A DNA stretch of 25,447 nt, taken from a virus. Lineage: Duplodnaviria > Heunggongvirae > Uroviricota > Caudoviricetes. Numbering within the stretch: position 1 is the stretch's first letter; every line of letters begins with the position of its first letter. Both the position numbers and the translations under genes were made by a program. Of this stretch, positions 2,912-21,219 are shown piece by piece. The stretch lies in the IMG/VR virus record IMGVR_UViG_2734482783_000014. The stretch is one strand, 5' to 3'. The notes under the pieces were generated by a model. The model searched no databases and was not told the DNA's origin. It worked only from the letters and a program-made list of their open reading frames with translations.

Positions 2912-3486
2912 ACCGGGCCTCCGGTGGTATCGCCGCCTTTCAGGACGCCAGTATGCTGATGCGCATCAACCACGATCCCGTTAGAACTCATTGCACCGCC
3001 ACTCTGGGTAACACCACCATTGATCACCACTTCGCTGTTAATACGCGTGCGGTCAGCCTCCAGCACAAACTCACTGGTTTTCAGGGTGATGTTGTCGACG
3101 GCCTCAATGACCATAGATTTGATGCCCCTGACATACCAGCGCCCGGTGGCGGGTTCGTATTCAAACCAGCCACCGTCAGGATGTTCTGTCACGCAGGCGT
3201 CCGCCGACTTCGACGGTGGTGCGAACTGATTCGAATAGACAGCGGGCAGCGCAAAGGCAGTTTCAAGATTGCCTCCCAGACTCAGCAGCACCACCTGCTC
3301 ACCTTCCGATGGTCGCCACCATGTGCGGGCATTACCGGCACGCAGCGTCAGCCAACTGATCCAGTTAGTTTCAAGGTCGCCCGTTTTCACCCGGCAAAGC
3401 CAGTTTTCCCGGTCCACTTCGGTGACTACACCTGTGCGGATCAGGTTGGTGATAAGGCGCATGATTTCGGTTAGTTGTGCGTTCAT
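2908..3486 (-). CDS. V: Baseplate spike/assembly protein gpV-like
   Basis: 192-aa ORF in the expected position; Gly-rich C-terminus is typical of gpV-like spike proteins. ATG at 3486. Confidence 0.75.
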   Translation of the reverse strand: MNAQLTEIMRLITNLIRTGVVTEVDRENWLCRVKTGDLETNWISWLTLRAGNARTWWRPSEGEQVVLLSLGGNLETAFALPAVYSNQFAPPSKSADACVTEHPDGGWFEYEPATGRWYVRGIKSMVIEAVDNITLKTSEFVLEADRTRINSEVVINGGVTQSGGAMSSNGIVVDAHQHTGVLKGGDTTGGPV

Positions 3487-3589
3487 AACGTGATGATTGT
3501 TATAGACACACGAAAAAAATTCGCTATTGTTGCTTTGTATGAGAAATCACACAAAACACGGTCAATTATTGAACAAAAAAGGAATCCCA

Positions 3590-4435
3590 ATGGCTACTGT
3601 TGTTTCTTTGATAAACATGAAAGGTGGTGTAGGTAAGTCGACTCTAACTGTAAACTTAGCTTGGCACTACTCATGCTATAATAACTGGAAAAAAAACGTA
3701 CTCGTTGTTGATTTGGATCCGCAATTTAACGCAAGTCAGTACTTAATCGGCACACAAAAATATCAGCAAAATGTCATCATTGATAAAAAACCGACTGTTT
3801 GGGAAATATTTGAGCAGCATACAAGAACACCTATGGGCAAACCGAATAAAGTTGACCCTAACGATGCTATTATTCGCGCCGTAACATTTACAAATGGTTG
3901 CTATATAGATTTATTACCTTCTAGGTTAGAGCTTGCATTATCTTTAAAAAGCCCCGGACAGAAGGTTGAATTACTTCGTAAAGCATTAAAAAAAGTTGAG
4001 GACAAGTATGATCTCATAATTATTGACTGTGCCCCAACCGAATCAATATTAACAACAGCGGCGTATTTAGCTAGTGACTACATACTTGTACCAGTAAAAC
4101 CAGAGTATTTATCAACAATAGGCTTACCATTACTAGTAAATTCAATGAATGACTTTCTTGGGGAACATGAGGATTCTAACTTAAAACTTGCAGGCATTGT
4201 ATTCAATGCCTGCTCAGGATATCAACCAGAAGAAATTAAATCACAAGATAGCGTAAGAGAATTAGCAAAGAAAAATGGCTGGAATGTTTTTGATTCTGAA
4301 ATAATCTATTCAAAATCTTATCCTAAAGGAGCCAGGGAAGGAAAACCTATTTTCAGAACATCATATGCTCGCACTACTTCAGCAAATAACTTTGCTAAAT
4401 TTGCTAATGAGTTCGCTAAAACGATAGGTCTATAA
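3590..4435 (+). CDS. ParA/MinD-family deviant Walker-A ATPase (cargo gene)
   Basis: ATG at 3590 preceded by an AAGGA RBS. The N-terminus MATVVSLINMKGGVGKSTLTVNLA carries the KGGxGK[ST] deviant Walker A motif, and IIIDCAP is a Walker B-like hydrophobic-Asp segment. Markedly AT-rich compared with the flanking tail genes. Confidence 0.8.
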   Translation: MATVVSLINMKGGVGKSTLTVNLAWHYSCYNNWKKNVLVVDLDPQFNASQYLIGTQKYQQNVIIDKKPTVWEIFEQHTRTPMGKPNKVDPNDAIIRAVTFTNGCYIDLLPSRLELALSLKSPGQKVELLRKALKKVEDKYDLIIIDCAPTESILTTAAYLASDYILVPVKPEYLSTIGLPLLVNSMNDFLGEHEDSNLKLAGIVFNACSGYQPEEIKSQDSVRELAKKNGWNVFDSEIIYSKSYPKGAREGKPIFRTSYARTTSANNFAKFANEFAKTIGL

Positions 4436-4437
4436 GT

Positions 4438-4974
4438 ATGACAACTAGCTCAGAGAAAAAAACATTTACTTTGTTGAGTGAGATTTTCTCATTGATTGCA
4501 AAGTATGGAGAAGAAAACTTCTACAATGCCATATCGAAACTCAACGATCCTGAACTTGTTAAGTCATTAAATCAAGTTAAAAGTGCAGCTATCACAAGAA
4601 AGCAAAGTGTAAAGAGCAGCAAGCACATTGTATCCACATCGAAAAAACCTACCGATATGCTTAATATAGATTTGGTAAATAATATCAAAAATCATTTAAG
4701 CAACATTAGAGTTTTCAAAGAAACAAAAGATGTAAGGAGCTATCTCGAAAACCAGAAATTCGTTAACCCTGACTTATTGAACAAAAGAAGTCGCCAGCAA
4801 ATGATCAGCACATTTTGCAAGCAATGTAGCTACCTAACCACTGAGACTTTAGAGTTAGTTATAAGTGAGTTAGAGAGAAAGCCACTTCATGGTCATACTC
4901 ATAAAGATGACAGAAGCCTTGAAAATTGGTCAGATATAATATTAAAAAAAGATAATAAAGCGAACGACATTTAA
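4438..4974 (+). CDS. Hypothetical 178-aa basic protein, translationally coupled partner of the ParA-like ATPase
   Basis: Starts 2 bp after the ParA-like stop with the same AT-rich composition. Lys/Ser-rich, no recognisable motif, no ParB-like signature. Confidence 0.6.
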   Translation: MTTSSEKKTFTLLSEIFSLIAKYGEENFYNAISKLNDPELVKSLNQVKSAAITRKQSVKSSKHIVSTSKKPTDMLNIDLVNNIKNHLSNIRVFKETKDVRSYLENQKFVNPDLLNKRSRQQMISTFCKQCSYLTTETLELVISELERKPLHGHTHKDDRSLENWSDIILKKDNKANDI

Positions 4975-6459: not shown

Positions 6460-6833
6460 GCTGCTACCTGTTGCGCCATCTGGTTACGAGTGATCCAGAA
6501 GGCAATAACGGTCAGCAGATAAAATACCAGGGTAATGGCCCACCCCGTCCAGGCGAGACTTACGATAATCAGCAATCGCATAACCCAGCTGATAAATACG
6601 TTTTCTTTTCGGGTAATGCTCTTCAGCAAAGATGCCCTCAACTCCTGCCAGAGCGGGCCGTTCTTAATTAACGCAACCAGTGCTACCGGAATTGCCACCC
6701 ATGTCAGCAGACAGGCTACCCAGACACCGGACGCTGCCAGTACCGGAAAAATCCCCTGTGGATACACCATTGCTGCGATTAACAGCGCCATCCATAACAT
6801 CAGAAACAGTCCGCTGATTAATTTCTTTTTCAT
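6456..6833 (-). CDS. lysA: LysA-like multi-pass membrane protein (lysis timing)
   Basis: Start MKKKLISGLFLML... at 6833, immediately after the K stop. Several hydrophobic helices. The longer ORF to 6905 would overlap K. Confidence 0.55.
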   Translation of the reverse strand: MKKKLISGLFLMLWMALLIAAMVYPQGIFPVLAASGVWVACLLTWVAIPVALVALIKNGPLWQELRASLLKSITRKENVFISWVMRLLIIVSLAWTGWAITLVFYLLTVIAFWITRNQMAQQVAA

Positions 6834-8309: not shown

Positions 8310-8960
8310 TCAGCGGCTGTCATTGCGCAGTCTGCGCTCCAGCTGCTGTTTGTCTTTTTTCACGCCACAGCGGGGATCGAGCTGTAACGCATGGTTGAGA
8401 TGATTAAGGGCAGACGCCGGATTGCTTTCACTCAGGACAGCGCCAATCGCTTTATGCAGACGCGCCCGTGACTGGTCCGGCATATCCAGACCGTCTGTCA
8501 GCTCCAGCGTCTGCAGCAACAGATCGGCATCAAAGCCGGTGGCGGCAAGCATTGCGCTCTGCGCTGCGTCTGCCATTTCCTCTGCCAGCACGGTCTGCAC
8601 GTTGCGGTTACCCAGTGGCATCACCCAGCCATGACGCAGGGCATGACGCCCGATCTCCAGCGCCCCGGCATAGTCTCCGGCATCAATGCGCCACAGCATC
8701 ACGTACATCAGCACGTCATCCTGTTGAGTGCCTCCGGCAGCCAGGACACCCTCTGCCCAGGCGGCGTACTTCGGCAGCAGCTCCACCTTTATTTCCGCTT
8801 TTTTCACCGTGGACTGAACGCCCTTGAGACGGCGGCGGTCTTCCGCCAGTTGCAGCAGCATCAGGTCATAGCCCGACGCGTGGCGAACGCTGCCGCCCTC
8901 GCGGGCGGCCTGTTCAGCCTGAACGCGCAGGCGATGCTGCCGTGCGGGACTCAGGCTCAT
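8310..8960 (-). CDS. M: Terminase small/endonuclease subunit gpM-like
   Basis: 216-aa ORF directly downstream of N in the P2 O-N-M-L order. ATG at 8960. Confidence 0.75.
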   Translation of the reverse strand: MSLSPARQHRLRVQAEQAAREGGSVRHASGYDLMLLQLAEDRRRLKGVQSTVKKAEIKVELLPKYAAWAEGVLAAGGTQQDDVLMYVMLWRIDAGDYAGALEIGRHALRHGWVMPLGNRNVQTVLAEEMADAAQSAMLAATGFDADLLLQTLELTDGLDMPDQSRARLHKAIGAVLSESNPASALNHLNHALQLDPRCGVKKDKQQLERRLRNDSR

Positions 8961-11014: not shown

Positions 11015-12781
11015 ATGAACACCACACTGACACCCGCAGATCTCGATCCCCGTAGGCAGGCCATGCTGCTGTACTTTCAGGGATACCGCGTAGCCCGCAT
11101 TGCTGAAATGCTGGGCGAGAAAGTTGCAACCGTTCACAGCTGGAAGAAACGCGACAAGTGGGGTGACTATGGGCCGCTGGATCAGATGCAGCTCACCACC
11201 GCCGCCCGCTACTGCCAGCTCATTATGAAGGAGCACAAAGAAGGGAAAGATTTCAAAGAGATTGACCTGCTGGCGCGCCAGTCGGAGCGCCATGCACGGA
11301 TCGGCAAGTTTAACAATGGCGGCAACGAAGCCGACTTAAACCCTAACGTCGCCAACCGCAACAAAGGCCCACGCCGTCAGCCGGAAAAGAATGTTTTCAC
11401 CGATGAACAGATTGAAAAGCTGGAGGAAATCTTCCATTCCTCCATGTTCAACTACCAGCGCCACTGGTGGGAAGCCGGAAAAACCAATCGCATCCGTAAC
11501 CTGCTGAAGTCTCGCCAGATCGGCGCGACCTTCTATTTTGCCCGTGAAGCCCTGATTGACGCCCTGCTGACCGGACGTAACCAGATTTTCCTTTCTGCCA
11601 GTAAGGCTCAGGCCCACGTCTTTAAACAGTACATCATCGACTTCGCCAAAGAAGTCGAAGTGGAGCTGAAAGGCGATCCGATGGTGCTTCCCAACGGGGC
11701 CACGCTTTACTTCCTCGGCACCAATGCCCGCACGGCGCAGAGTTACCACGGCAACCTGTATCTGGATGAATATTTCTGGATACCGAAATTCCAGGAGCTG
11801 CGCAAAGTGGCTTCCGGTATGGCTATTCACAAGAAATGGCGACAGACCTATTTTTCCACGCCATCCAGCCTGACCCACAGTGCTTATCCGTTCTGGTCCG
11901 GTGCGCTGTTCAACCGTGGACGCAACAAAGCCGACAAGGTGGACATCGACCTGTCCCACAGCAATCTGGCCCCCGGCCTGCTGTGCGCAGACGGGCAATA
12001 CCGCCAGATAGTCACCGTGGAAGATGCAGTGCGCGGCGGCTGTAACCTGTTCGACCTTGACCAGTTGCGCATGGAGTACAGCCCGGATGAATACCTGAAC
12101 CTGCTGATGTGCGAGTTCGTGGACGATCTCGCGTCCGTGTTTCCGCTCAGCGAGCTGCAGGCGTGCATGGTGGACAGCTGGGAAGTCTGGACCGACTTTC
12201 ATGCACTGGCCCTTCGCCCGTTTGGCTGGCGCGAAGTGTGGATCGGTTATGACCCGGCAAAAGGTACGCAGAACGGCGACAGCGCCGGATGCGTGGTGGT
12301 GGCACCGCCAGCCGTGCCGGGCGGTAAGTTCCGCATTCTTGAGCGTCACCAGTGGCGCGGGATGGACTTCCGCGCCCAGGCTGACGCCATCAAAAAACTG
12401 ACCGAACAGTACAACGTGACCTACATCGGTATCGACTCAACCGGCGTTGGTCACGGGGTTTATGAGAACGTGAAAGCATTCTTTCCTGCCGTCCGGGAGT
12501 TTGTCTACAACCCCAACGTTAAAAACGCCCTGGTGCTCAAGGCCTACGACATTATCAGCCACCGCCGTCTGGAGTTTGACGCCGGACACACCGACATAGC
12601 GCAGTCATTCATGGCAATCCGTCGCGCCACCACCGCCAGCGGCAACCGCCCGACCTATGAAGCCAGCCGCAGCGAAGAAGCCAGCCATGCCGATCTGGCC
12701 TGGGCAACAATGCACGCACTGTTTAACGAACCGCTGCAGGGCGAATCCGCCAATACCAGCAATATTGTGGAGATTTTTTGA
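11015..12781 (+). CDS. P: Terminase large (ATPase) subunit gpP-like
   Basis: 588-aa ORF divergent from O, of the size and position of P2 gpP. Stop overlaps the Q start (TGATG). Confidence 0.9.
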   Translation: MNTTLTPADLDPRRQAMLLYFQGYRVARIAEMLGEKVATVHSWKKRDKWGDYGPLDQMQLTTAARYCQLIMKEHKEGKDFKEIDLLARQSERHARIGKFNNGGNEADLNPNVANRNKGPRRQPEKNVFTDEQIEKLEEIFHSSMFNYQRHWWEAGKTNRIRNLLKSRQIGATFYFAREALIDALLTGRNQIFLSASKAQAHVFKQYIIDFAKEVEVELKGDPMVLPNGATLYFLGTNARTAQSYHGNLYLDEYFWIPKFQELRKVASGMAIHKKWRQTYFSTPSSLTHSAYPFWSGALFNRGRNKADKVDIDLSHSNLAPGLLCADGQYRQIVTVEDAVRGGCNLFDLDQLRMEYSPDEYLNLLMCEFVDDLASVFPLSELQACMVDSWEVWTDFHALALRPFGWREVWIGYDPAKGTQNGDSAGCVVVAPPAVPGGKFRILERHQWRGMDFRAQADAIKKLTEQYNVTYIGIDSTGVGHGVYENVKAFFPAVREFVYNPNVKNALVLKAYDIISHRRLEFDAGHTDIAQSFMAIRRATTASGNRPTYEASRSEEASHADLAWATMHALFNEPLQGESANTSNIVEIF

Positions 12782-13815
12782 TGGGAAAGAGTAAGAAAAA
12801 CCGCGCTGCGTCGACGAACCAGATTCAGCATAAAAGCCAGACTTCAGCCGAAGCATTCAGCTTTGGCGATCCCATTCCAGTACTGGACCGCCGCGAACTG
12901 CTGGACTATGTGGAATGCGTACAGACGGATCGCTGGTATGAGCCACCCGTAAGTTTTGACGGACTGGCGCGCACCTTCCGCGCTGCCGTGCATCACAGTT
13001 CCCCGATTGCCGTAAAGTGCAACATTCTGACCAGTACCTACATCCCTCACCCGCTGCTCAGCCAGCAGGCTTTTTCACGTTTTGTGCAGGACTATCTGGT
13101 ATTTGGTAACGCCTACCTGGAGAAACGCACGAACCGATTCGGTGAAGTTATCGCCCTTGAGCCTACTCTGGCAAAATACACCCGACGCGGATTAGACCTG
13201 GATACCTACTGGTTTGTGCAATACGGCATGACCACGCAGCCGTATCAGTTCACGAAAGGCAGCATCTTTCATCTGATGGAACCGGACATCAACCAGGAGA
13301 TCTACGGCCTGCCCGGTTATCTTTCTGCCATTCCGTCAGCCCTGCTCAACGAATCCGCCACGCTGTTCCGCCGCAAGTATTACATTAACGGTAGTCATGC
13401 AGGCTTCATCATGTACATGACCGATGCCGCGCAGAACCAGGAGGATGTGAACAACCTCCGCAATGCGATGAAAAGCGCCAAAGGCCCTGGTAACTTCCGC
13501 AATCTGTTTATGTACTCGCCTAACGGCAAAAAGGACGGACTTCAGATTATCCCGTTGTCAGAAGTCGCAGCGAAGGATGAGTTTCTGAATATCAAAAACG
13601 TGAGCCGTGACGACATGATGGCGGCACACCGTGTGCCGCCTCAGATGATGGGGATTATGCCGAATAATGTTGGGGGTTTTGGGGATGTGGAGAAGGCTAG
13701 TAATGTATTTGTACGCAATGAACTAATACCATTGCAAAAAAGATTTGAAGAGTTAAATGTTTGGTTAAAAGAAAAAGTGATACAGTTCGAAGAATATAAA
13801 CTTCATTCAAATTAG
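12781..13815 (+). CDS. Q: Portal protein gpQ-like
   Basis: ATG at 12781 (the tabulated ORF begins 3 nt earlier at TTG). 344 aa, following P. The last ~150 bp are AT-rich. Confidence 0.85.
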   Translation: MGKSKKNRAASTNQIQHKSQTSAEAFSFGDPIPVLDRRELLDYVECVQTDRWYEPPVSFDGLARTFRAAVHHSSPIAVKCNILTSTYIPHPLLSQQAFSRFVQDYLVFGNAYLEKRTNRFGEVIALEPTLAKYTRRGLDLDTYWFVQYGMTTQPYQFTKGSIFHLMEPDINQEIYGLPGYLSAIPSALLNESATLFRRKYYINGSHAGFIMYMTDAAQNQEDVNNLRNAMKSAKGPGNFRNLFMYSPNGKKDGLQIIPLSEVAAKDEFLNIKNVSRDDMMAAHRVPPQMMGIMPNNVGGFGDVEKASNVFVRNELIPLQKRFEELNVWLKEKVIQFEEYKLHSN

Positions 13816-13821
13816 CTTTAA

Positions 13822-13840
13822 GGCTGCCAGTTTGGCAGCC
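13822..13840. terminator. Hairpin (ggctgcca gtt tggcagcc) between the convergent Q and P-loop NTPase genes
   Basis: Perfect 8-bp stem with a 3-nt loop placed between two convergent stop codons. The flanks are only moderately T-rich. Confidence 0.4.
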
Positions 13841-13847
13841 AGAACCT

Positions 13848-15098
13848 TTATCGCCATTTTAGATAAAAAGCAAAAAATGGATCAGTAATATGCAACTTTC
13901 GGTCCTCCTTATCCCAATCTATTACAGGAGTTGAAGCTTCTTCCGTAGCAGCTATTTTAGCCATTTTTTCTATAACACGAGTAACCTCATGAGCTTGTGG
14001 AGGAGTATCTTGCACCAGTTCGCGTATGGCTGATCTTAACTCCTCATACTGAATACTTTGCATTCCTGGTTTCATATGTGACAATGCATATAATACAACT
14101 TTATATATATCTACTTCCTCACCACTTTTCAGTTTTCTAGGAATTCTGTCAGTTCGCTGATTAGGGCCACTAGCTAACTTATCAAATACTATTTTCCCAG
14201 TGGATTCTGCAACCTTTCTAAAAATATCATCATCTAAAGAATTAATAACTAACTTACTCGACAAAGTTTCTTTAACATTATTTGCTAAGCATATAGCCTT
14301 GCAAAACTCTTGCATTAAATGAGGACTTCCCAATGATTCATTGGCAATTTTATCAATTACTGAATCACTAACTTCCATGTTTAACAGAGGAAATCCCACT
14401 TTTGCTATTTGTTTTAGTTCATCCATTTCCCACGAAGGCATGGAAATATTTTCTAGCCGTCCGGTAATTTCTTTTTCAACTTTTACAGCATCATACCTTC
14501 GATGTGGAATGGCTATCAGTACAACTGGTACTCCATCAAAAACTAATGGTTTTATCGCTCTAATAAAGTTACCTTGTAGGTCACGATCGAGGTAATGAAA
14601 GTCATCAATTATAAGACTAGACTTGGTTTGAGAGAGAACTTTTAGTGCAGAACTTTTTGCGGATATCGTTCGCGATTTTTTATTACCATTTGACTTTCCA
14701 TCCGTCTGAACTAAACCAGCCTCACCTGTACCTTTAACAACTAATGCACTTGCGGTCCCCGATACCTTACCACTAACTGCAATAGCACTATTTTCTCCAG
14801 AATTAACTTCAATACTATGGTAGCCATTTAGTTTTTCTAATACCTGCTCCCAAATATCATCTTCAGTTGTAATACTCCCACCGTCAATCCATACAACATC
14901 ATCGTCCATGACTGGGAATACCATTCTTGTAATTACAGTCTTACCAGACTTTGTTTGCCCAGTTAAAGTTACTAACTTACATAAATTATCTTTAGCACTC
15001 TCCAGTTTTCCATGAACCTCTCCTTCAGAGCGCTCAACATAAGTCAATTTCGGCATACCGCCTGGCACAAAAACTTGTGAAGCACGTTGTTTATCCAT
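13848..15098 (-). CDS. P-loop NTPase, 416 aa, AAA+/STAND-like (cargo gene)
   Basis: Walker A GQTKSGKT and Walker B-like SSLIIDDFHYL, followed by a largely helical C-terminal half. AT-rich with an AT-rich upstream region at 15100..15190. Sits between Q and the putative cos site. Confidence 0.7.
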   Translation of the reverse strand: MDKQRASQVFVPGGMPKLTYVERSEGEVHGKLESAKDNLCKLVTLTGQTKSGKTVITRMVFPVMDDDVVWIDGGSITTEDDIWEQVLEKLNGYHSIEVNSGENSAIAVSGKVSGTASALVVKGTGEAGLVQTDGKSNGNKKSRTISAKSSALKVLSQTKSSLIIDDFHYLDRDLQGNFIRAIKPLVFDGVPVVLIAIPHRRYDAVKVEKEITGRLENISMPSWEMDELKQIAKVGFPLLNMEVSDSVIDKIANESLGSPHLMQEFCKAICLANNVKETLSSKLVINSLDDDIFRKVAESTGKIVFDKLASGPNQRTDRIPRKLKSGEEVDIYKVVLYALSHMKPGMQSIQYEELRSAIRELVQDTPPQAHEVTRVIEKMAKIAATEEASTPVIDWDKEDRKLHITDPFFAFYLKWR

Positions 15099-15205
15099 GA
15101 ATACTTCCCAATTAACACCGTTCTAGTGAACTACGATTCTAAAATAACATCTGAGCTTGGACTATTAACATTACATGATTTGAGTATTCAAAGCCACAAG
15201 CGCGC

Positions 15206-15224
15206 GCTCGTATCCCCGCCACGC
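15206..15224 (-). other. Candidate cohesive-end (cos) site
   Basis: Minus strand reads GGCGTGGCGGGGATACGAG. The first 13 nt match the 186 cos sequence GGCGTGGCGGGGAAAGCAT as I recall it (P2: GGCGAGGCGGGGAAAGCAC). Orientation relative to Q matches the P2 arrangement. The region is GC-normal between two AT-rich cargo blocks. Confidence 0.4.
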
Positions 15225-15270
15225 CTGCCCGCTTTATGTAGTGGTTTTCATGCAGATGCATGCTCTACGC

Positions 15271-15297
15271 AAAAGCCCGCCAGTTCTGGCGGGCTTT
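15271..15297. terminator. Rho-independent terminator (aaaaGCCCGCCagttctGGCGGGCtttt), bidirectional
   Basis: GC-rich 7-8 bp stem flanked by an A-run and a T-run, immediately downstream of the minus-strand three-gene operon. Confidence 0.55.
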
Positions 15298-15361
15298 TGC
15301 AAAAACGATCCTCAAACGATCATGCGATTTCATGCAGCATAGTCATGCAAAGTAGAAACTG

Positions 15362-15778
15362 CTATTTAACGTCCGGCGTTTGCGCTGTGGGGGATACTTT
15401 TCCATCTAGCGTATTTACAATTGAGAGGGGGTAAATTCCCATTTCAATTCCACAAATCACGTCGTAACGAGCCTGCGCTTTCTCTCGCATTTCTTGAGAA
15501 ACAGGGGACGATGGTGCATTTAAAACTGCTTCGGCTTGCTTCTTCAGAGCTTTCAACCGTCTTTTCAGTTTGATTTCTTGCGGATCAACAGCATAAATCG
15601 TCCATGCAAAAGTAAAAACTTCGCTTAAAAGAATTGACACCATCGGTATTGAAGCAATGTAAAGGTCTTTCCATGTTGGATCTGTAATGAAGCTAGCCAG
15701 CTTTATTAGGAAAAGGCCTACGCCGCCGCCACCAGTAACACCGACTGCTTTACCGCTTGTTTTCTTTTGTTCAGGCAT
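15362..15778 (-). CDS. Small membrane protein with two predicted TM helices (third gene of cargo operon)
   Basis: From ATG at 15778: MPEQKKTSGKAVGVTGGGGVGLFLIKLASFI... plus a second hydrophobic helix IASIPMVSILLSEVFTFAWTIYAV, then a charged C-terminus. Start overlaps the end of the upstream gene by 8 bp. Confidence 0.55.
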   Translation of the reverse strand: MPEQKKTSGKAVGVTGGGGVGLFLIKLASFITDPTWKDLYIASIPMVSILLSEVFTFAWTIYAVDPQEIKLKRRLKALKKQAEAVLNAPSSPVSQEMREKAQARYDVICGIEMGIYPLSIVNTLDGKVSPTAQTPDVK

Positions 15779-16034
15779 GAGAGGCTGACTCCTTCCTCTC
15801 ACGCTTATTTTTCTCTGCTATATCATCGATGAGCTTTATTAACTCATCATCATTGTTTATATAAATATTTGTTTTATAGACATTTTTGTTTGCATCAGTA
15901 TAAGTGATAGAAACTTTTGTTTCGACAATAACTCGATCGAGCAGGCTACGTATAGCCACTCTAGCACCTATAAATATAGCTGGAGCTGCAACAAGCAGCC
16001 CCAACCATCCTAACACACTAATATCTATAGACAT
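15771..16034 (-). CDS. Small single-TM protein, 87 aa (second gene of cargo operon)
   Basis: N-terminal helix ISVLGWLGLLVAAPAIFIGARVAI followed by a polar Asn/Asp/Lys-rich domain. Begins 2 bp after the upstream gene's stop. Confidence 0.55.
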   Translation of the reverse strand: MSIDISVLGWLGLLVAAPAIFIGARVAIRSLLDRVIVETKVSITYTDANKNVYKTNIYINNDDELIKLIDDIAEKNKRERKESASHA

Positions 16035-16036
16035 TT

Positions 16037-16930
16037 TTAATCCGCATCAGGTTTTATTTTTCTATCTTTGGCGGCAAAGTGTCGACCCACTTTGATGATC
16101 GATAACTTTTCGTCTACCTGGCCACCGGAATCTTTCACAATTTTCTTCATCTTCACAGCAAACAATTCGCCAAAAATTTTGGGGGCGTCTGGTCCAGTAA
16201 CAAGCTTGATGAACTCATTATCTTCCATTCTGACATTGCGCTTTTCACCGCCAAACTCAACACGCCAGCCACTTTTTTTGTCAGTATGCGCCGAAACGAA
16301 TGTCACGGTTGTTTCAAATTCGTCAACTTCTTCTTTGGTTTCAAAGAGAACTTTTGGCGACTTAAACTCTTCTGCCTCATCTTTATGAATTTTGAGGATT
16401 TCTTTCTTAGAGGTGCGCGATTTTTTTACCACAAAATTGTCGATACCATCTTGTAACAGAGGCTGTCTGACAAACGCGTCAACAGCCTTACGAATCTCTG
16501 GGGCATTAACGATTTTTTCGACATCTTCAGAGCAAACAATCTCTTCACCATCGACTTTCAGCTTAACTTTGTCACTACCGTTAGCTTTCTCGACTATGTC
16601 GATCTTACGCCCGTTAAGCTTCTTGAGAACCTCTAAAACTGTAGCACCGCCAACGGCTAAAGGAATGGCTGACAAACCTAAAATTTGTACAACATCTTTA
16701 GCATTAGCTAGATGTTGTACAACCTCAATATCAAACCCAAAGGAACCGGCTATCAATTCAGCGTCAACGTTAACTTCAATGTCTCGCCCTCCGTTTACAA
16801 TCTCATTTGCAGAGTAGATAGCCTCACCTAGCCCCTGCAAACTTTTCGCAAACGAAAGAATATCCATCTTATGATCGTCGAGAGCTTTGCCTTGATACAC
16901 AATACTTACTGATTGAGTCTTATCCGCCAT
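16037..16930 (-). CDS. Hypothetical soluble protein, ~297 aa (first gene of cargo operon)
   Basis: Long AT-rich ORF, Lys/Glu/Asp-rich, with no recognisable catalytic motif. ATG at 16930; the tabulated ORF starts at TTG 16951. Confidence 0.6.
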   Translation of the reverse strand: MADKTQSVSIVYQGKALDDHKMDILSFAKSLQGLGEAIYSANEIVNGGRDIEVNVDAELIAGSFGFDIEVVQHLANAKDVVQILGLSAIPLAVGGATVLEVLKKLNGRKIDIVEKANGSDKVKLKVDGEEIVCSEDVEKIVNAPEIRKAVDAFVRQPLLQDGIDNFVVKKSRTSKKEILKIHKDEAEEFKSPKVLFETKEEVDEFETTVTFVSAHTDKKSGWRVEFGGEKRNVRMEDNEFIKLVTGPDAPKIFGELFAVKMKKIVKDSGGQVDEKLSIIKVGRHFAAKDRKIKPDAD

Positions 16931-17066
16931 TGAGTTCAGATCCGTTGCCAATAAAATGCGCGCGATTTTACGCCCATCACTATGTTTAATCTATCTATTA
17001 ATCATTTATCCCTCTAGCTGTCTACTATCGGACTCAAAAAACATGACTCATTACAAACGAAACCTA

Positions 17067-17300
17067 TCAATGCAGCCAGCTGTCGTCTTCCCACACCTTC
17101 TGCATAATTTTCAGCACTTGTTTTCTTTCTTCGTCCAGTTGCAGTCCGGTCAGTTCCACACCGTTAGAGCTACCTTTGCGGATACGAATTACCGTTTTGG
17201 GATACAGGAGGCGCAGATTGCGGTAAAGCTCGGATTCAAGGGCATCCAGGGTAGACTGGCTAATCTTCTGCTCTTTATCGATCATTATTTCAATGCGCAT
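17067..17300 (-). CDS. dinI: DinI-family protein (DNA-damage-inducible protein I-like)
   Basis: From ATG at 17300: MRIEIMIDKEQKISQSTLDALESELYRNLRLLYPKTVIRIRKG...ELTGL...QKVWEDDSW, the DinI pattern (MRIE... start, acidic C-terminus). GAGGTG RBS. Confidence 0.75.
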   Translation of the reverse strand: MRIEIMIDKEQKISQSTLDALESELYRNLRLLYPKTVIRIRKGSSNGVELTGLQLDEERKQVLKIMQKVWEDDSWLH

Positions 17301-17310
17301 AAAAGTCACC

Positions 17311-17499
17311 TCAGCTGATGACATCCATTGAGCGGTTGTATTCGTGGGTTCTGATTTTTGCCATGAGTTCATCTGTCAGTTCAGAAACCCACTGCAGAGC
17401 CAGCCCCTTCTCTTCATCACTACACTCACTAGCCGCTACAAGCTTAAGAAAAAAATCAATGCGCTGTAGCTTCAAAGACTCCAAAAAATAGTCCTGCAT
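17311..17499 (-). CDS. Small SOS-regulated ORF (62 aa), in the position of the 186 tum antirepressor but much shorter
   Basis: Perfect AGGAGG RBS 4 nt before ATG at 17499. A LexA box overlaps the predicted -10 upstream. Function is inferred from position only. Confidence 0.45.
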   Translation of the reverse strand: MQDYFLESLKLQRIDFFLKLVAASECSDEEKGLALQWVSELTDELMAKIRTHEYNRSMDVIS

Positions 17500-17651: not shown

Positions 17652-20066
17652 TTAATACAGGTTCCGCCACTTATCATCTTCCTGCAAACGCTGGTTCCGA
17701 TAGAAGATACGCAGGCCTGCTCCTGACGGAATACTGCCGCCGCGAAGGAGTAAATCGACCTCTTTCTCGCTACCATCAAATCCTCTGGACTTCAGCTCAT
17801 AGACGAGCTGCAGTCGCTGATGGTCTGTAATTCGCTGTTTGTAGTCTTTACGCCGTTTCGGTTTAACCAGGCGTAACCTTGCAGCCAGTTCCCGGCGCTC
17901 TTTTTTGCTCATACTGTGCAGGTAATCGTGCAACTCCTTGTCATCCATGCGGGTAATGTCCGTTCTGGTGTCCCCATCAGCTGATTTGTCTTTCCCTTGT
18001 TGGTTCAAATTTTCAGCAAGGGGACAGTTATTGCCACGAGTCCAAGGGGCGCAAGCGCCCTGGTCGGCTGCCGCCTCCTGAACGTCAACGGCCTTACGAA
18101 CCATTTTCCACTTCACTGCATGAGTGCAGATCTTGCCCTCTGCAATGGGTGACCAGATGCCATAAATACGAATACCGTGATCGCCATAGGCGGTTGGCTC
18201 TTCGTTGATTTCATAAGCGGTTCTGATGAGGTGATATTTGCGGGGAACCAGTACGCCGCCCTGCTTCATGATGTAGGTGGCAAAACAACCAGCATCAGCA
18301 GCAGCCAGGATGGCATCAAGGCGCGGGTTATCCAGTACCGGCGCACCTGCTTTTTTGTCACCCTGTTGCCTTGCCGCCTGACCAGCCAGCAATCGCAGTT
18401 CACGGTAAGCCTGACGCCCCGGAATGCCAAAGAAGCGGAATTGCTGAACACGATGCAGAGACGCCCAGGCATTAACGTATTCAGCGTTATCACGCAGGGA
18501 TTTACCCGTTTCCTTACTGATCTCGCCAGCCAGACCACGCCCGTCAATATTCTTACTGATATATTTCGCAATGTAGCTTGTCGGCGTTCCTTTGCGCGGG
18601 TTTATCAGCTCAGACTTAAAGCGCGGCCCCGTGTTATTGCCCAGCTCCTCGCGGTCTTCACGGATGGCAAACTTACGCAACAATGCAGTAATGGCGCGGC
18701 GGTCTTTTTTGCGCATGAAACACAACAGGTGCCAGTGAACTGTGCCGTCATGATGCGGCTCAGCCACCCGCACGCCATACCAGCGCAACCCGGCTTTGTG
18801 CATAGCCTTACGAAATGCAGCAAACATACCGACCAGATAATCACTGCTTTGTCTTACCGTCGCATTTGTCCAGGTCGGGTTGGGCCTGCCGTTATTTAGC
18901 GTGGAATGGAAACGTGACGGGCAGGTGATGGTGTAGAAAACGGCGCAGTCACCACGCATTTCCGCGATAAGCTCCAGACCTTTAACACAGGCCATCATCT
19001 CATTGCGGCGATGCGCAGGGTTGCTGCTGCTGGCGTTTACCACGTCTTCCATATCCAGCGTGTCGCCGTCTTCGTTCACCAGTTCATGAGAACGGAAAAA
19101 CTCCAGCGACTTACGGCGCTGCTCACGTTTATGCATCACGGCTTCATAGCTGACATAGGGAGATGCTTTTTTGCTGACCAGGCAAACAGCACGCAACTGC
19201 TCTTCCCGCCATTCGCAACGCATCTTCCATAATTTCCGATACCACCAGTCGGCGCATAACATACGCGCCAGCGAACCCGGAATGAGTTCATAAGGCACGG
19301 GTTTACGGCGGTTTCTTTTCCGACAGAGTTGCTCAAACGCAGGCGGGATAACATCCAGACGCAGGGTTTCCGCTGCCACCTTTTCCCATGTCTTGCGGAT
19401 TTCTTCTGGCGTAACATCATCGGTGGCATACAAATCGCCACAAGCTGTATCAAGGCACATGCTCATATGCGCAGCTACCAAGGTGGACAGGCGTTTCACC
19501 TGATCCTGACTCATTTCAGGCAGGATCAGCAGGCCGTCCAGCCCTTCATGGCTTGCCATAAAGCGAAAAGAAGTGGATAGCTGACTGTCGCGTACATGCT
19601 CCAGTCGTTCCAAGCATGGCTTAATCGTCTCACGCAAATAGCGGGAATAAGCCTTTGGCCTGCCCAGGCTGCTGAAGTATTTAATACGTTGCATCAGCGG
19701 CTTGCTGATATGGGAAGGCTGGGCGTTGACGTCCGCCAGAATGGCCATGTCTGGATTAAAACGCTGCTGCTCATGCGCCAGCTTTGCCCGGCTAATTAGC
19801 TTATCCTGCTCCATTTCGCGTTGGACAGGATCACGGGATTCATTAAAGAAATAACGCTCCCAGACCTGATCACTCAGTGCCTCGCGGCGCAGTTGTTCCT
19901 GCTCGTTATCGGCAGCGTACAGAGTGATCAGGTTTGAAAGCGCAGAAACCGGCGCAACTTCCGCCGGGTCCAGATAAGGGTTAATGGCCTTTTTCGGGCT
20001 GTTCCATGAGAATGCTGCGGCGACCTCGTTAAAGCCGCTGCAGTTGTTCATATCAGCATGGCTCAT
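17652..20066 (-). CDS. A: Replication initiation protein gpA-like (rolling-circle nickase)
   Basis: Contains [15 protein letters not shown] and [13 protein letters not shown], the metal-binding and active-site tyrosine motifs of P2 A-family initiators. ATG at 20066 overlaps the Dam stop (ATGA); the longer ORF extends to 20093. Confidence 0.9.
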
Positions 20067-20920
20067 GCACGCACTCCGTACACGACGGAACAATCCACGC
20101 CACGCGAAGGATCAAATCCTACCCAGCAGCGCGGCCCGGAAACAGCGATGATTTCTGTTGCAGATTTACTCTCACCAGCTGCCACGCCGATGCTGCGTTT
20201 TGCCTTGATGTAGTGGTGAGTAAAATTGCGATACAGCGAACGGATCAGGGATGTGTCACTGTTAGAAACAATGACCGGATGACCTTCAGATGATCGATGT
20301 TCAAGAACGGATGCCAGGTGATACTGGTCATCTTCAGTGAAGCCATCAGTGTGATAGCCGGAAAACGTACCGTCATAAGGCGGATCGCAATACACCACAT
20401 CCCCCGCCTTCAACATCGCCAGCGTTTCATCAAAGCTGGCGCAGATAAACGTTGCCCGCTGGGCTTTCTCTGCAAATGCGCGAATTTCTTTTTCAGGGAA
20501 ATACGGATTTTTATAATTACCGTAGGGAATGTTGAAATACCCGCTCTTGTTATAGCGACATAGCCCACGGTAACCATGACGATTGAGATACAGAAAATAT
20601 ACCGCTTTCATGAAATCAGTAATTTCAGTGGAGTAATTAAACTCCTGCCTTATGTTGTAATAAGCCACCTCTCTGTTTGCTTCCTCAAATAAAGCTCTGG
20701 CACGAGATATAAACGCCTCACAATCAGCAGCAACCTTTTTATAGAGGTTGATTAAATCAGGATTAATATCCGAAACCAGATAGCTGGGGTAATCCGTCTC
20801 CATCATCACAGCACAAGAACCCGCGAAAGGTTCAACCAGTCGCGTGCCAGCAGGAAGGTATTTTTTCAGTTCGGACATAATGGTGGTTTTATTACCCGCC
20901 CATTTCAGGATGGTGCTCAT
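20063..20920 (-). CDS. dam: DNA adenine (N6) methyltransferase, Dam family
   Basis: From ATG at 20920: [11 protein letters not shown]..., FAGSCAV, and the catalytic DPPY motif ([10 protein letters not shown]). AGGAGG RBS; start overlaps the upstream stop. Confidence 0.85.
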
Positions 20921-21219
20921 ACAGCACCTCCTGCAATAACATATCCTAAAGCTTCTAATGGGGTTAATGAGCGAATTGATAGCATCACCCATTGTTCTGA
21001 AACTGCCATGACGTCATTAACCGGAAGCACATGAGAGATAACCGCGGCCCATTCCCTACCCGTAAATACGCCATGCTTCCATTCGCAAAGAGAAAGAACA
21101 TCACCAACTTTATAGCCACGATCGTCTTTACGAAGTTCAGCCGTCTTTTGACCTGCAACCACAGCGTTGAAATACTTAGGTGCAATTTTTAATTGATGGA
21201 TACGCACAGCCCCTGTCAT
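20917..21219 (-). CDS. DUF3850/ASCH-like small protein
   Basis: From ATG at 21219: [40 protein letters not shown], which resembles the DUF3850 N-terminal pattern as I recall it. GGAGG RBS; ATGA overlap with the upstream gene. Confidence 0.6.

Follow-up and report, generated by a model that had tools for sequence, protein, structure and literature searches.

The 150-bp block at positions 15200-15349 of the window (the whole stretch of 25,447 nucleotides analysed here, from the IMG/VR record IMGVR_UViG_2734482783_000014) is very probably the functional cos site in a P2-like (Peduoviridae) prophage of the Fels-2 type, as judged by sequence comparison. This identification rests on the homology of the block, the borders of the conserved module, synteny, the full-length packaging genes, and the exchange of cargo at the module borders. 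The preliminary description of the region had proposed a cos site there, and the span it gave, 15190-15360, contains the conserved module almost exactly. The coordinates of the features discussed below are collected in Table 1.

The window is part of a P2-like prophage of the Fels-2/Klebsiella/E. coli type. Its segment 10000-20000 aligns with such phages at about 96% identity over 68-69% of the length, in three pieces. The gpP and gpQ genes on the plus strand are followed by cargo, cos, a second cargo, DinI, and gpA on the minus strand, and the same order is found in Fels-2, SEN8, and E. coli prophages. The location of cos, between gpQ and the DinI-gpA region with gpQ reading toward it, is canonical. 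Beyond gpP, the genes of the scaffold protein gpO, the capsid protein gpN, the small terminase subunit gpM, and gpL are located. Both subunits of the terminase (gpM and gpP) are encoded on the same element as cos, at a distance of about 2.5-7 kb from it. The prophage is represented incompletely in the window, whose end cuts the integrase ORF; the tail genes are also incomplete.

Table 1. Features of the cos region and the related genes in the window.
Feature	Coordinates	Strand	Basis or remarks
Terminase small subunit (gpM homologue)	8310..8960	-	PHROG, E = 1.4e-88
Terminase large subunit (gpP homologue)	11015..12781	+	PHROG, E = 3e-160
Portal gene (gpQ homologue)	12778..13815	+	Pfam Phage_portal; synteny with P2, 186, Fels-2
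Portal-side cargo bay	13741..15199	-	GC 0.37; one gene
P-loop NTPase gene, 416 aa	13848..15098	-	PADLOC candidate PDC-S59, E = 4.6e-32; AAA_22 weak
Complete conserved cos module	15200..15349	-	Offsets counted from the first G of the cohesive end: +26 to -124
Portal-side flank of the predicted bottom-strand nick, CGCGCGC	15200..15206	-	GCGCGC invariant in 12/12 family members
Predicted 19-nt 5' cohesive end (cosN), GGCGTGGCGGGGATACGAG	15207..15225	-	Homology to annotated P2/186 ends
Invariant flank directly 5' of the predicted top-strand nick, AAAGCGGGCA	15226..15235	-	Conserved in the 12-genome alignment and 120 listed loci
Proximal boxes, CATGCAnnTGCATGAAAACC (CATGCAnnTGCATKAAAACC)	15243..15262	-	12-genome alignment
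GC-rich hairpin AAAAGCCCGCCAG-nn-CTGGCGGGCTTTT, intrinsic-terminator-like	15271..15298	.	Read from the replication side toward cosN
GATC (Dam) site pair, GATCGTTTGAGGATCG	15306..15321	-	Hairpin on one side, distal boxes on the other
Three distal boxes: CGCATG 15322-15327, TGCATG 15331-15336, TGCATG 15344-15349	15322..15349	-	Single orientation
Replication-side cargo bay	15353..17068	-	GC 0.41; three-gene cassette
146-aa gene (PGAP: shorter 138-aa product)	15362..15802	-	Cassette member
87-aa gene	15771..16034	-	Cassette member
304-aa gene, LAPAL-motif family	16037..16951	-	PDC-S42, E = 7.8e-44; NF053583, 191.6 bits (cut-off 60)
DinI/Tum-like gene, first conserved gene on the replication side	17067..17372	-	Pfam DinI, 5.5e-21; DinI/Tum module resembles that of 186
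Replication protein gpA	17652..20093	-	Pfam Phage_GPA, 8.8e-128

The borders of the module were determined by scanning IMG/VR for a 26-mer composed of the predicted 19-nt cohesive end and CGCGCGC, which gave at least 120 loci. All offsets are read on the minus strand of the window, which corresponds to the orientation of the P2 map. Among the matches listed, with 120 distinct sequences, the alignment columns are conserved from -124 to +26 with an abrupt start and end, and the sequences outside are unalignable. In window coordinates, 15200-15349 is aligned in 120 of the loci listed, 15350 in 7, and the position just left of 15199 in none. The module is 90-95% identical across 48 phage records. 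Since conservation is confined to -124..+26, the block behaves as an indivisible functional unit. The portal-side border lies only 7 bases past the predicted cut, so that almost all of the recognition information would be located on the side of the replication genes, in agreement with the one-sided array of boxes. The block had also been characterised as an island of normal GC content between AT-rich blocks; indeed, the GC content of 15200-15349 is 54%, compared with 37% in the left flank and 41% in the right one.

A coding explanation for the module was rejected, the ORFs over it being short or crossing the cargo junctions, with none of them conserved. An explanation by an RNA gene was also rejected: the window contains no Rfam match at the gathering threshold, and the only matches, on the terminator stem, have E > 0.1. 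Gene calls over the module are present in the databases. In RefSeq entries of E. coli P2-like prophages, the region of cos is annotated by PGAP as a 'hypothetical protein, internal stop' pseudogene (4446-4634 in locus L138 and 2940-3134 in locus L139), and a 150-nt 'hypothetical protein' is annotated over the module in a Klebsiella phage record. These gene calls appear to be a systematic mis-annotation of a non-coding packaging site.

Another peculiarity was noted in the record IMGVR_UViG_3300011853_000021 (L072), where two inverted copies of the cos 26-mer (3440-3465 and 6704-6729) are located 3.2 kb apart. Each copy has its own orf62/DinI, cargo, and Q-P arm, and the arms are 81-92% identical, so that they do not make up a perfect palindrome. 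This double cos probably reflects a chimeric metagenome assembly in which two related phages were joined; an inverted double element would be the alternative.

The comparison of the cos regions included 12 genomes: the window, P2, 186, EtG, SEN8, P4, Fels-2, SopEphi, Klebsiella Gegevirus, Erwinia ENT90, Aeromonas LPM4, and Ralstonia YO139_2. For P2, 186, EtG, SEN8, and P4, the right and left ends were joined before alignment. The architecture common to all 12 consists of three distal TGCATG boxes, usually a GC-rich dyad, two proximal boxes, AAGCGGGCR, GGCGWGGCGGGG, and GCGCGC. In the P2 orientation, the distal boxes occupy -124 to -97, the dyad about -73 to -46, and the proximal boxes -37 to -18. 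They are followed in the cut region by AAGCGGGCR, the predicted top-strand nick, GGCGWGGCGGGG, seven variable bases, the predicted bottom-strand nick, and GCGCGC.

The 55-bp core around the nicks has been delimited previously (Ziermann & Calendar 1990, as cited in PMC3931495 and PMC5694545). In an ungapped comparison over this core (-29..+26), the window is identical to Fels-2 at 55/55 positions and to SEN8 at 54/55; the level of identity is 44/55 with 186, 43/55 with P4, 42/55 with P2, and 44-46/55 with the Erwinia, Aeromonas, and Ralstonia relatives. Alignment to the P2 and 186 cos regions had been named in the preliminary description as a way to check the identity of the site. When carried out, it gave significant matches to the experimentally defined cos junctions of 186, P2, and P4, with z values for local alignment of 25.7, 11.7, and 16.6, respectively, each above all 1000 dinucleotide shuffles.

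Homology of this kind would also be displayed by a genuine cos by descent that is no longer used, that is, by a recent relic in a prophage made defective by, for instance, lesions located elsewhere than in the window. Cryptic P2-like prophages are frequent in enterobacteria, and only 25 kb of the element is visible here, with the integrase ORF cut by the end of the window. Nevertheless, we consider such a relic improbable. The six head and packaging genes (gpP, gpM, gpO, gpN, gpL, and gpQ) are all full-length with strong family matches, and the flanking CI, CII-like, Dam, and gpA genes are full-length ORFs with strong Pfam matches. The module itself shows no decay, and its core does not differ from that of Fels-2 at any of the 55 positions. 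A cos site that is still functional remains the preferred reading.

The predicted 19-nt cohesive end (plus strand, ctcgtatccccgccacgcc) lines up nucleotide by nucleotide with the cohesive ends annotated for P2 (GGCGAGGCGGGGAAAGCAC, NC_001895 1-19) and 186 (GGCGTGGCGGGGAAAGCAT, NC_001317 1-19), which are known from experiment, and with that of P4. The level of identity is 15/19 with 186, 14/19 with P2, and 19/19 with Fels-2 and SEN8. The first 13 nt are those of the 186 cohesive end, as had been recognised on the minus strand beforehand; the match is real, although the coordinates then assigned to it (15224..15206) are one base low, the correct ones being 15225->15207. The chance expectation for the exact 13-mer is 7.6e-4 per window, and a scan of the whole window revealed this copy as the sole exact one.

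From the alignment, the minus strand is predicted to be nicked 5' of G15225, and the plus strand between 15206 and 15207. Because the overhang ends in 7 nt (ATACGAG) that are unlike those of P2 and 186, the position of the bottom-strand nick is an extrapolation. A literature search for mapped virion ends of the ATACGAG variant of the 19-mer gave only the SEN8 annotation. The SEN8 record opens with a 'putative cos site', ggcgtggcggggatacgag, and the genome announcement names that string cos (PMC5427200); the SEN8 cos was called by annotation. An overhang obtained by PhageTerm for the Serratia phage BZS1 was set aside as belonging to a phage of no shown relatedness. The sequences bordering the two predicted nicks display partial two-fold symmetry: GCGGGCR on one side agrees with GCGCGCR, the reverse complement of the other side, at 5-6 of 7 positions in 12/12 genomes. 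This partial symmetry fits a symmetric nicking enzyme.

The catgca repeats that had been noticed next to the putative cohesive end belong to the same module. TGCATG is rarer than expected in the window (12 copies found vs 27 expected), and 4 of the 12 copies are located within the 150-bp block, together with one CGCATG variant. Three distal boxes at similar spacing are found in 186, EtG, P2, P4, and ENT90, and TGCAT boxes recur in every aligned lineage. The proximal boxes, from TGCAT onward, represent the replication-side part of the Ziermann & Calendar core. The distal boxes are presumed to be terminase recognition repeats (cosB-like), and the gpM homologue is presumed to read the TGCAT boxes.

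The hairpin of the module, already described as strong, has a calculated stability of -30.6 / -27.9 kcal/mol (z about -6.5), and 0/200 shuffles were equally stable. In 77 distinct relatives, its 9-bp GC stem is nearly invariant, while the 2-nt loop is variable. When the hairpin is read from DinI to cosN, its TTTT tail is present in 67/77, whereas the opposite A-tract of the window is not conserved. The hairpin looks like a one-directional intrinsic terminator that would close the DinI/cargo operon ahead of the cut site; in the window alone, it is symmetric enough for both directions. GC dyads with different stem sequences are located in the same place in 186, EtG, P4, ENT90, and Aeromonas LPM4, and P2 has none. 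Found in most lineages but not in P2, the dyad is a common and not an obligatory part of the cos region of the family, and the hairpin cannot be essential for cleavage in general, since P2 lacks it. A search for covariation in the stem within the lineage (615/693 cells Watson-Crick) revealed nothing informative because the stem is almost invariant. The dyad is swapped for other GC stems only between genera.

The terminator-like hairpin with its conserved T-tail is the strongest single feature of the block, and the only sub-threshold Rfam matches are leader and terminator stems. One may therefore ask whether the block is mainly a transcriptional insulator (a terminator plus promoter elements) between accessory operons, with an incidental likeness to cos and the packaging site elsewhere. 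This is very unlikely. The hairpin accounts for 28 of the 150 conserved bases, and conservation is strictest at the positions of the cohesive end and of the nick flanks, which P2, 186, and P4 share. P2 lacks the hairpin yet keeps everything else, and the window contains no further GGCGWGGCGGGG-like site.

A pair of GATC (Dam) sites is conserved in the Fels-2-type module. GATC is found at -96 in 88 and at -85 in 87 of 95 distinct modules, and the pair is absent from the aligned modules of P2, 186, P4, EtG, ENT90, and Ralstonia YO139_2. Within -130..-1 of 48 contrast loci of the P2/186 type, no GATC was found in 28, one in 13, and two or more in 7. The window encodes a D12-class (Dam-type) adenine methylase (20063-20992, minus strand). 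A Dam homologue is present in 47 of the 54 assessable Fels-2-type cos loci (46 of these 47 have at least two GATC in the module) and in 0 of the 48 loci with P2/186-type cos, an association that holds only as a contrast between the two lineages. In six loci, the GATC pair is present without a detectable phage Dam. More speculatively, the GATC pair together with the phage Dam could make the use of cos methylation-dependent, like that of the P1 pac site.

Cargo on both sides of cos had been claimed for this window, and the distances between the conserved genes and the module bear this out: the gaps are 1387 bp on the portal side and 1720 bp on the DinI side, compared with ~140-170 and ~82 bp in the relatives with empty sites. 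The two-sided arrangement is typical of the lineage and was described previously. Based on profile matches to PADLOC candidates, both cargo sets are candidates for anti-phage defence. Profile searches gave no matches for the 87-aa and 146-aa partners, and a search for PDB relatives by sequence found none for the 416-aa or 304-aa protein.

Each cargo of the window is found at >98% identity in E. coli P2-like prophages, and the three-gene cassette adjoins cos at >99% identity in 14 E. coli genomes. In E. coli 13E0767, a DUF262 gene is followed by cos and then by the three-gene cassette of the window, and homology breaks at 13740 and 15200. In E. coli 64EVA, the 416-aa gene of the window is followed by cos and then by a different right-hand gene; homology reaches 15352 and resumes at 17069, the DinI stop codon. 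The empty-site relatives and these single-cargo E. coli genomes place the exchange breakpoints between 15199 and 15200 and between about 15352 and 15353. Both cargos of the window together were found in 0 of 5,426 complete E. coli genomes, none of which covers at least 80% of 13700-17200, and the exact 46-mer across the left cargo/cos junction has 0 matches in 185,579 representative genomes. Thus, this pairing of cargos is rare.

The gap between the portal gene and the module varies from 140 to 3518 bp in 88 listed loci and exceeds 500 bp in 76 of them. The empty portal-side gap of 140 bp contains only a terminator and a P2/186-like cosL flank. The gap between DinI and the module varies from 81 to 3320 bp in 81 listed loci and is empty (about 82 bp) in 24. 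Among the 56 listed loci measurable on both sides, both sites are filled in 27, only the portal side in 22, only the replication side in 3, and neither in 4. Clustering of the contents in these 56 loci gave 42 portal-side and 29 replication-side contents in 50 distinct combinations, and the cargo of one side was found paired with several different cargos opposite. These sequence data provide evidence for two independently exchangeable bays around cos.

NCBIfam assigns the 304-aa protein to a family with the name 'putative phage structural protein', and it might be argued that the AT-rich flanks are ordinary lineage-specific phage genes and not horizontally exchanged cargo. We regard this as scarcely credible. 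The contents just enumerated include empty sites, near-identical copies of each cargo reside in E. coli prophages where the other bay is different, and the GC content of the cargo is 13-17 points under that of the phage backbone.

Some further observations concern the flanks. The homology of many relatives stops ~50-75 bp before the portal stop codon, with the number of aligned loci falling from 72 to 44 at 13765. The portal-side junction is thus often located within the 3' end of gpQ, which makes about 20 C-terminal residues of the portal protein variable. In about 15 listed loci (for example, L027, L043, and L118) with a DinI-to-module gap of ~347 bp, a conserved ORF of ~90 aa (MGSKDS/MGKVDQ...) is the only replication-side cargo, located between the DinI terminator and the cos module. 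A screen of the 120 listed loci for satellite genes (psu, sid, delta, alpha, int) revealed no convincing satellites, only Ogr/delta-like and integrase matches.

A third AT-rich block (34-36% GC) is located amid the tail and baseplate genes, at 3527-4974 on the plus strand. It encodes a ParA/Soj-type ATPase of 302 aa (AAA_31, 3.7e-35) and a 178-aa protein without matches, and we take its place to be that where P2 carries the AT-rich orf30. According to Rousset et al. 2022 (PMC9122126), roughly one in four P2-like phages has a partition-like system.

Among known phages, the Felsduovirus members Fels-2 (NC_010463) and SEN8 (NC_047753) are the most similar to the window in this region. They have the same 19-mer, 150-bp module, boxes, hairpin, and GATC pair, and their cos is likewise located between gpQ-side cargo and DinI/gpA. 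Only the flanking cargo differs: in Fels-2, the portal-side cargo is a hypothetical gene of 1.7 kb and that of the opposite side is an orf97-like gene, and SEN8 carries a hypothetical gene and an HNH endonuclease on the portal side. P2, 186, and P4 share with the window the architecture, the first 12-13 nt of the overhang, the AAGCGGGCR/GCGCGC flanks, the TGCAT boxes, and the adjacency to the portal gene. Their cohesive ends are also 19-nt 5' overhangs; however, the last 7 nt are AAAGCAC/T instead of ATACGAG. The space from cos to Q in P2 and 186 is free of cargo and consists of only about 170-190 bp with the terminator tQ/tW, whereas the window carries cargo there. P2 lacks the hairpin and all three lack the GATC pair, while the window has both. 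The cos of lambda resembles that of the window in its logic, with a partly two-fold-symmetric nicking site and a one-sided array of terminase-binding repeats. However, there is no sequence relationship between them, the overhang of lambda is 12 nt and not 19 nt, and its repeats are R sites plus IHF. P2-family phages package from monomeric circles.

The interval between gpA and gpQ by cos has been described as a major hotspot for defence genes in P2-like phages (Rousset et al. 2022, PMC9122126; NAR 2026, PMC13586616), and the cos-Q insertion slot has also been reported (Dodd & Egan 1996 and Nakayama 1999, as cited in PMC5694545). The old/tin genes of P2 are located on the side of cos opposite the cos-Q slot. 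As in the window, the hotspot described in these papers contains variable AT-rich accessory or defence-candidate genes adjoining cos, from the conserved A-side genes to Q. The papers treat it as one interval, whereas here it is resolved into two bays that assort independently, with the 150-bp module between them and borders defined to the nucleotide. This two-bay resolution is a refinement and not a new phenomenon.

Taking these comparisons together, we infer how the site would work, including the nick positions, the protein-DNA contacts, the role of the terminator, and the function of the cargo. The terminase, composed of the small subunit gpM and the large subunit gpP, would recognise replicated phage DNA at cos, most likely via the five same-orientation TGCAT(G) boxes on the side of the replication genes. 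It would then cut the DNA, most likely via the partly two-fold-symmetric GCGSGCR half-sites at each nick. Two nicks 19 nt apart would leave the 5' overhang GGCGTGGCGGGGATACGAG, and the DNA would be fed through the portal (gpQ). The hairpin most likely halts transcription of the DinI/cargo operon before the cut site. The DNA outside the 150 bp, up to the portal and DinI genes, would be dispensable and would provide two bays for accessory genes, here anti-phage candidates, with the conserved cos module as a shared homology anchor between them.

It is possible, although we propose this with somewhat more doubt than confidence, that the 150-bp block is the entire cis-acting packaging signal, in which case nature would have provided, in the -124/+26 borders, the deletion map of a minimal cos. 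In the same proposal, the block would also serve as a pivot for recombination, dividing the gpA-gpQ hotspot into two bays, each of which exchanges its defence cargo independently of the other.

The cos site, its sequence, and the surrounding hotspot are already known, and for this reason the current understanding is unchanged. What is added here is modest: the borders of the module at nucleotide resolution on the population level and the independent assortment of the two sides. The 150-bp cassette is ready for cosmid or transduction tools in the hosts of Fels-2-type phages. For the biology of the prophage, the position of cos fixes the ends of the virion chromosome and orients the prophage map, and it marks the two bays used by this phage family to keep accessory and defence genes that can be exchanged.
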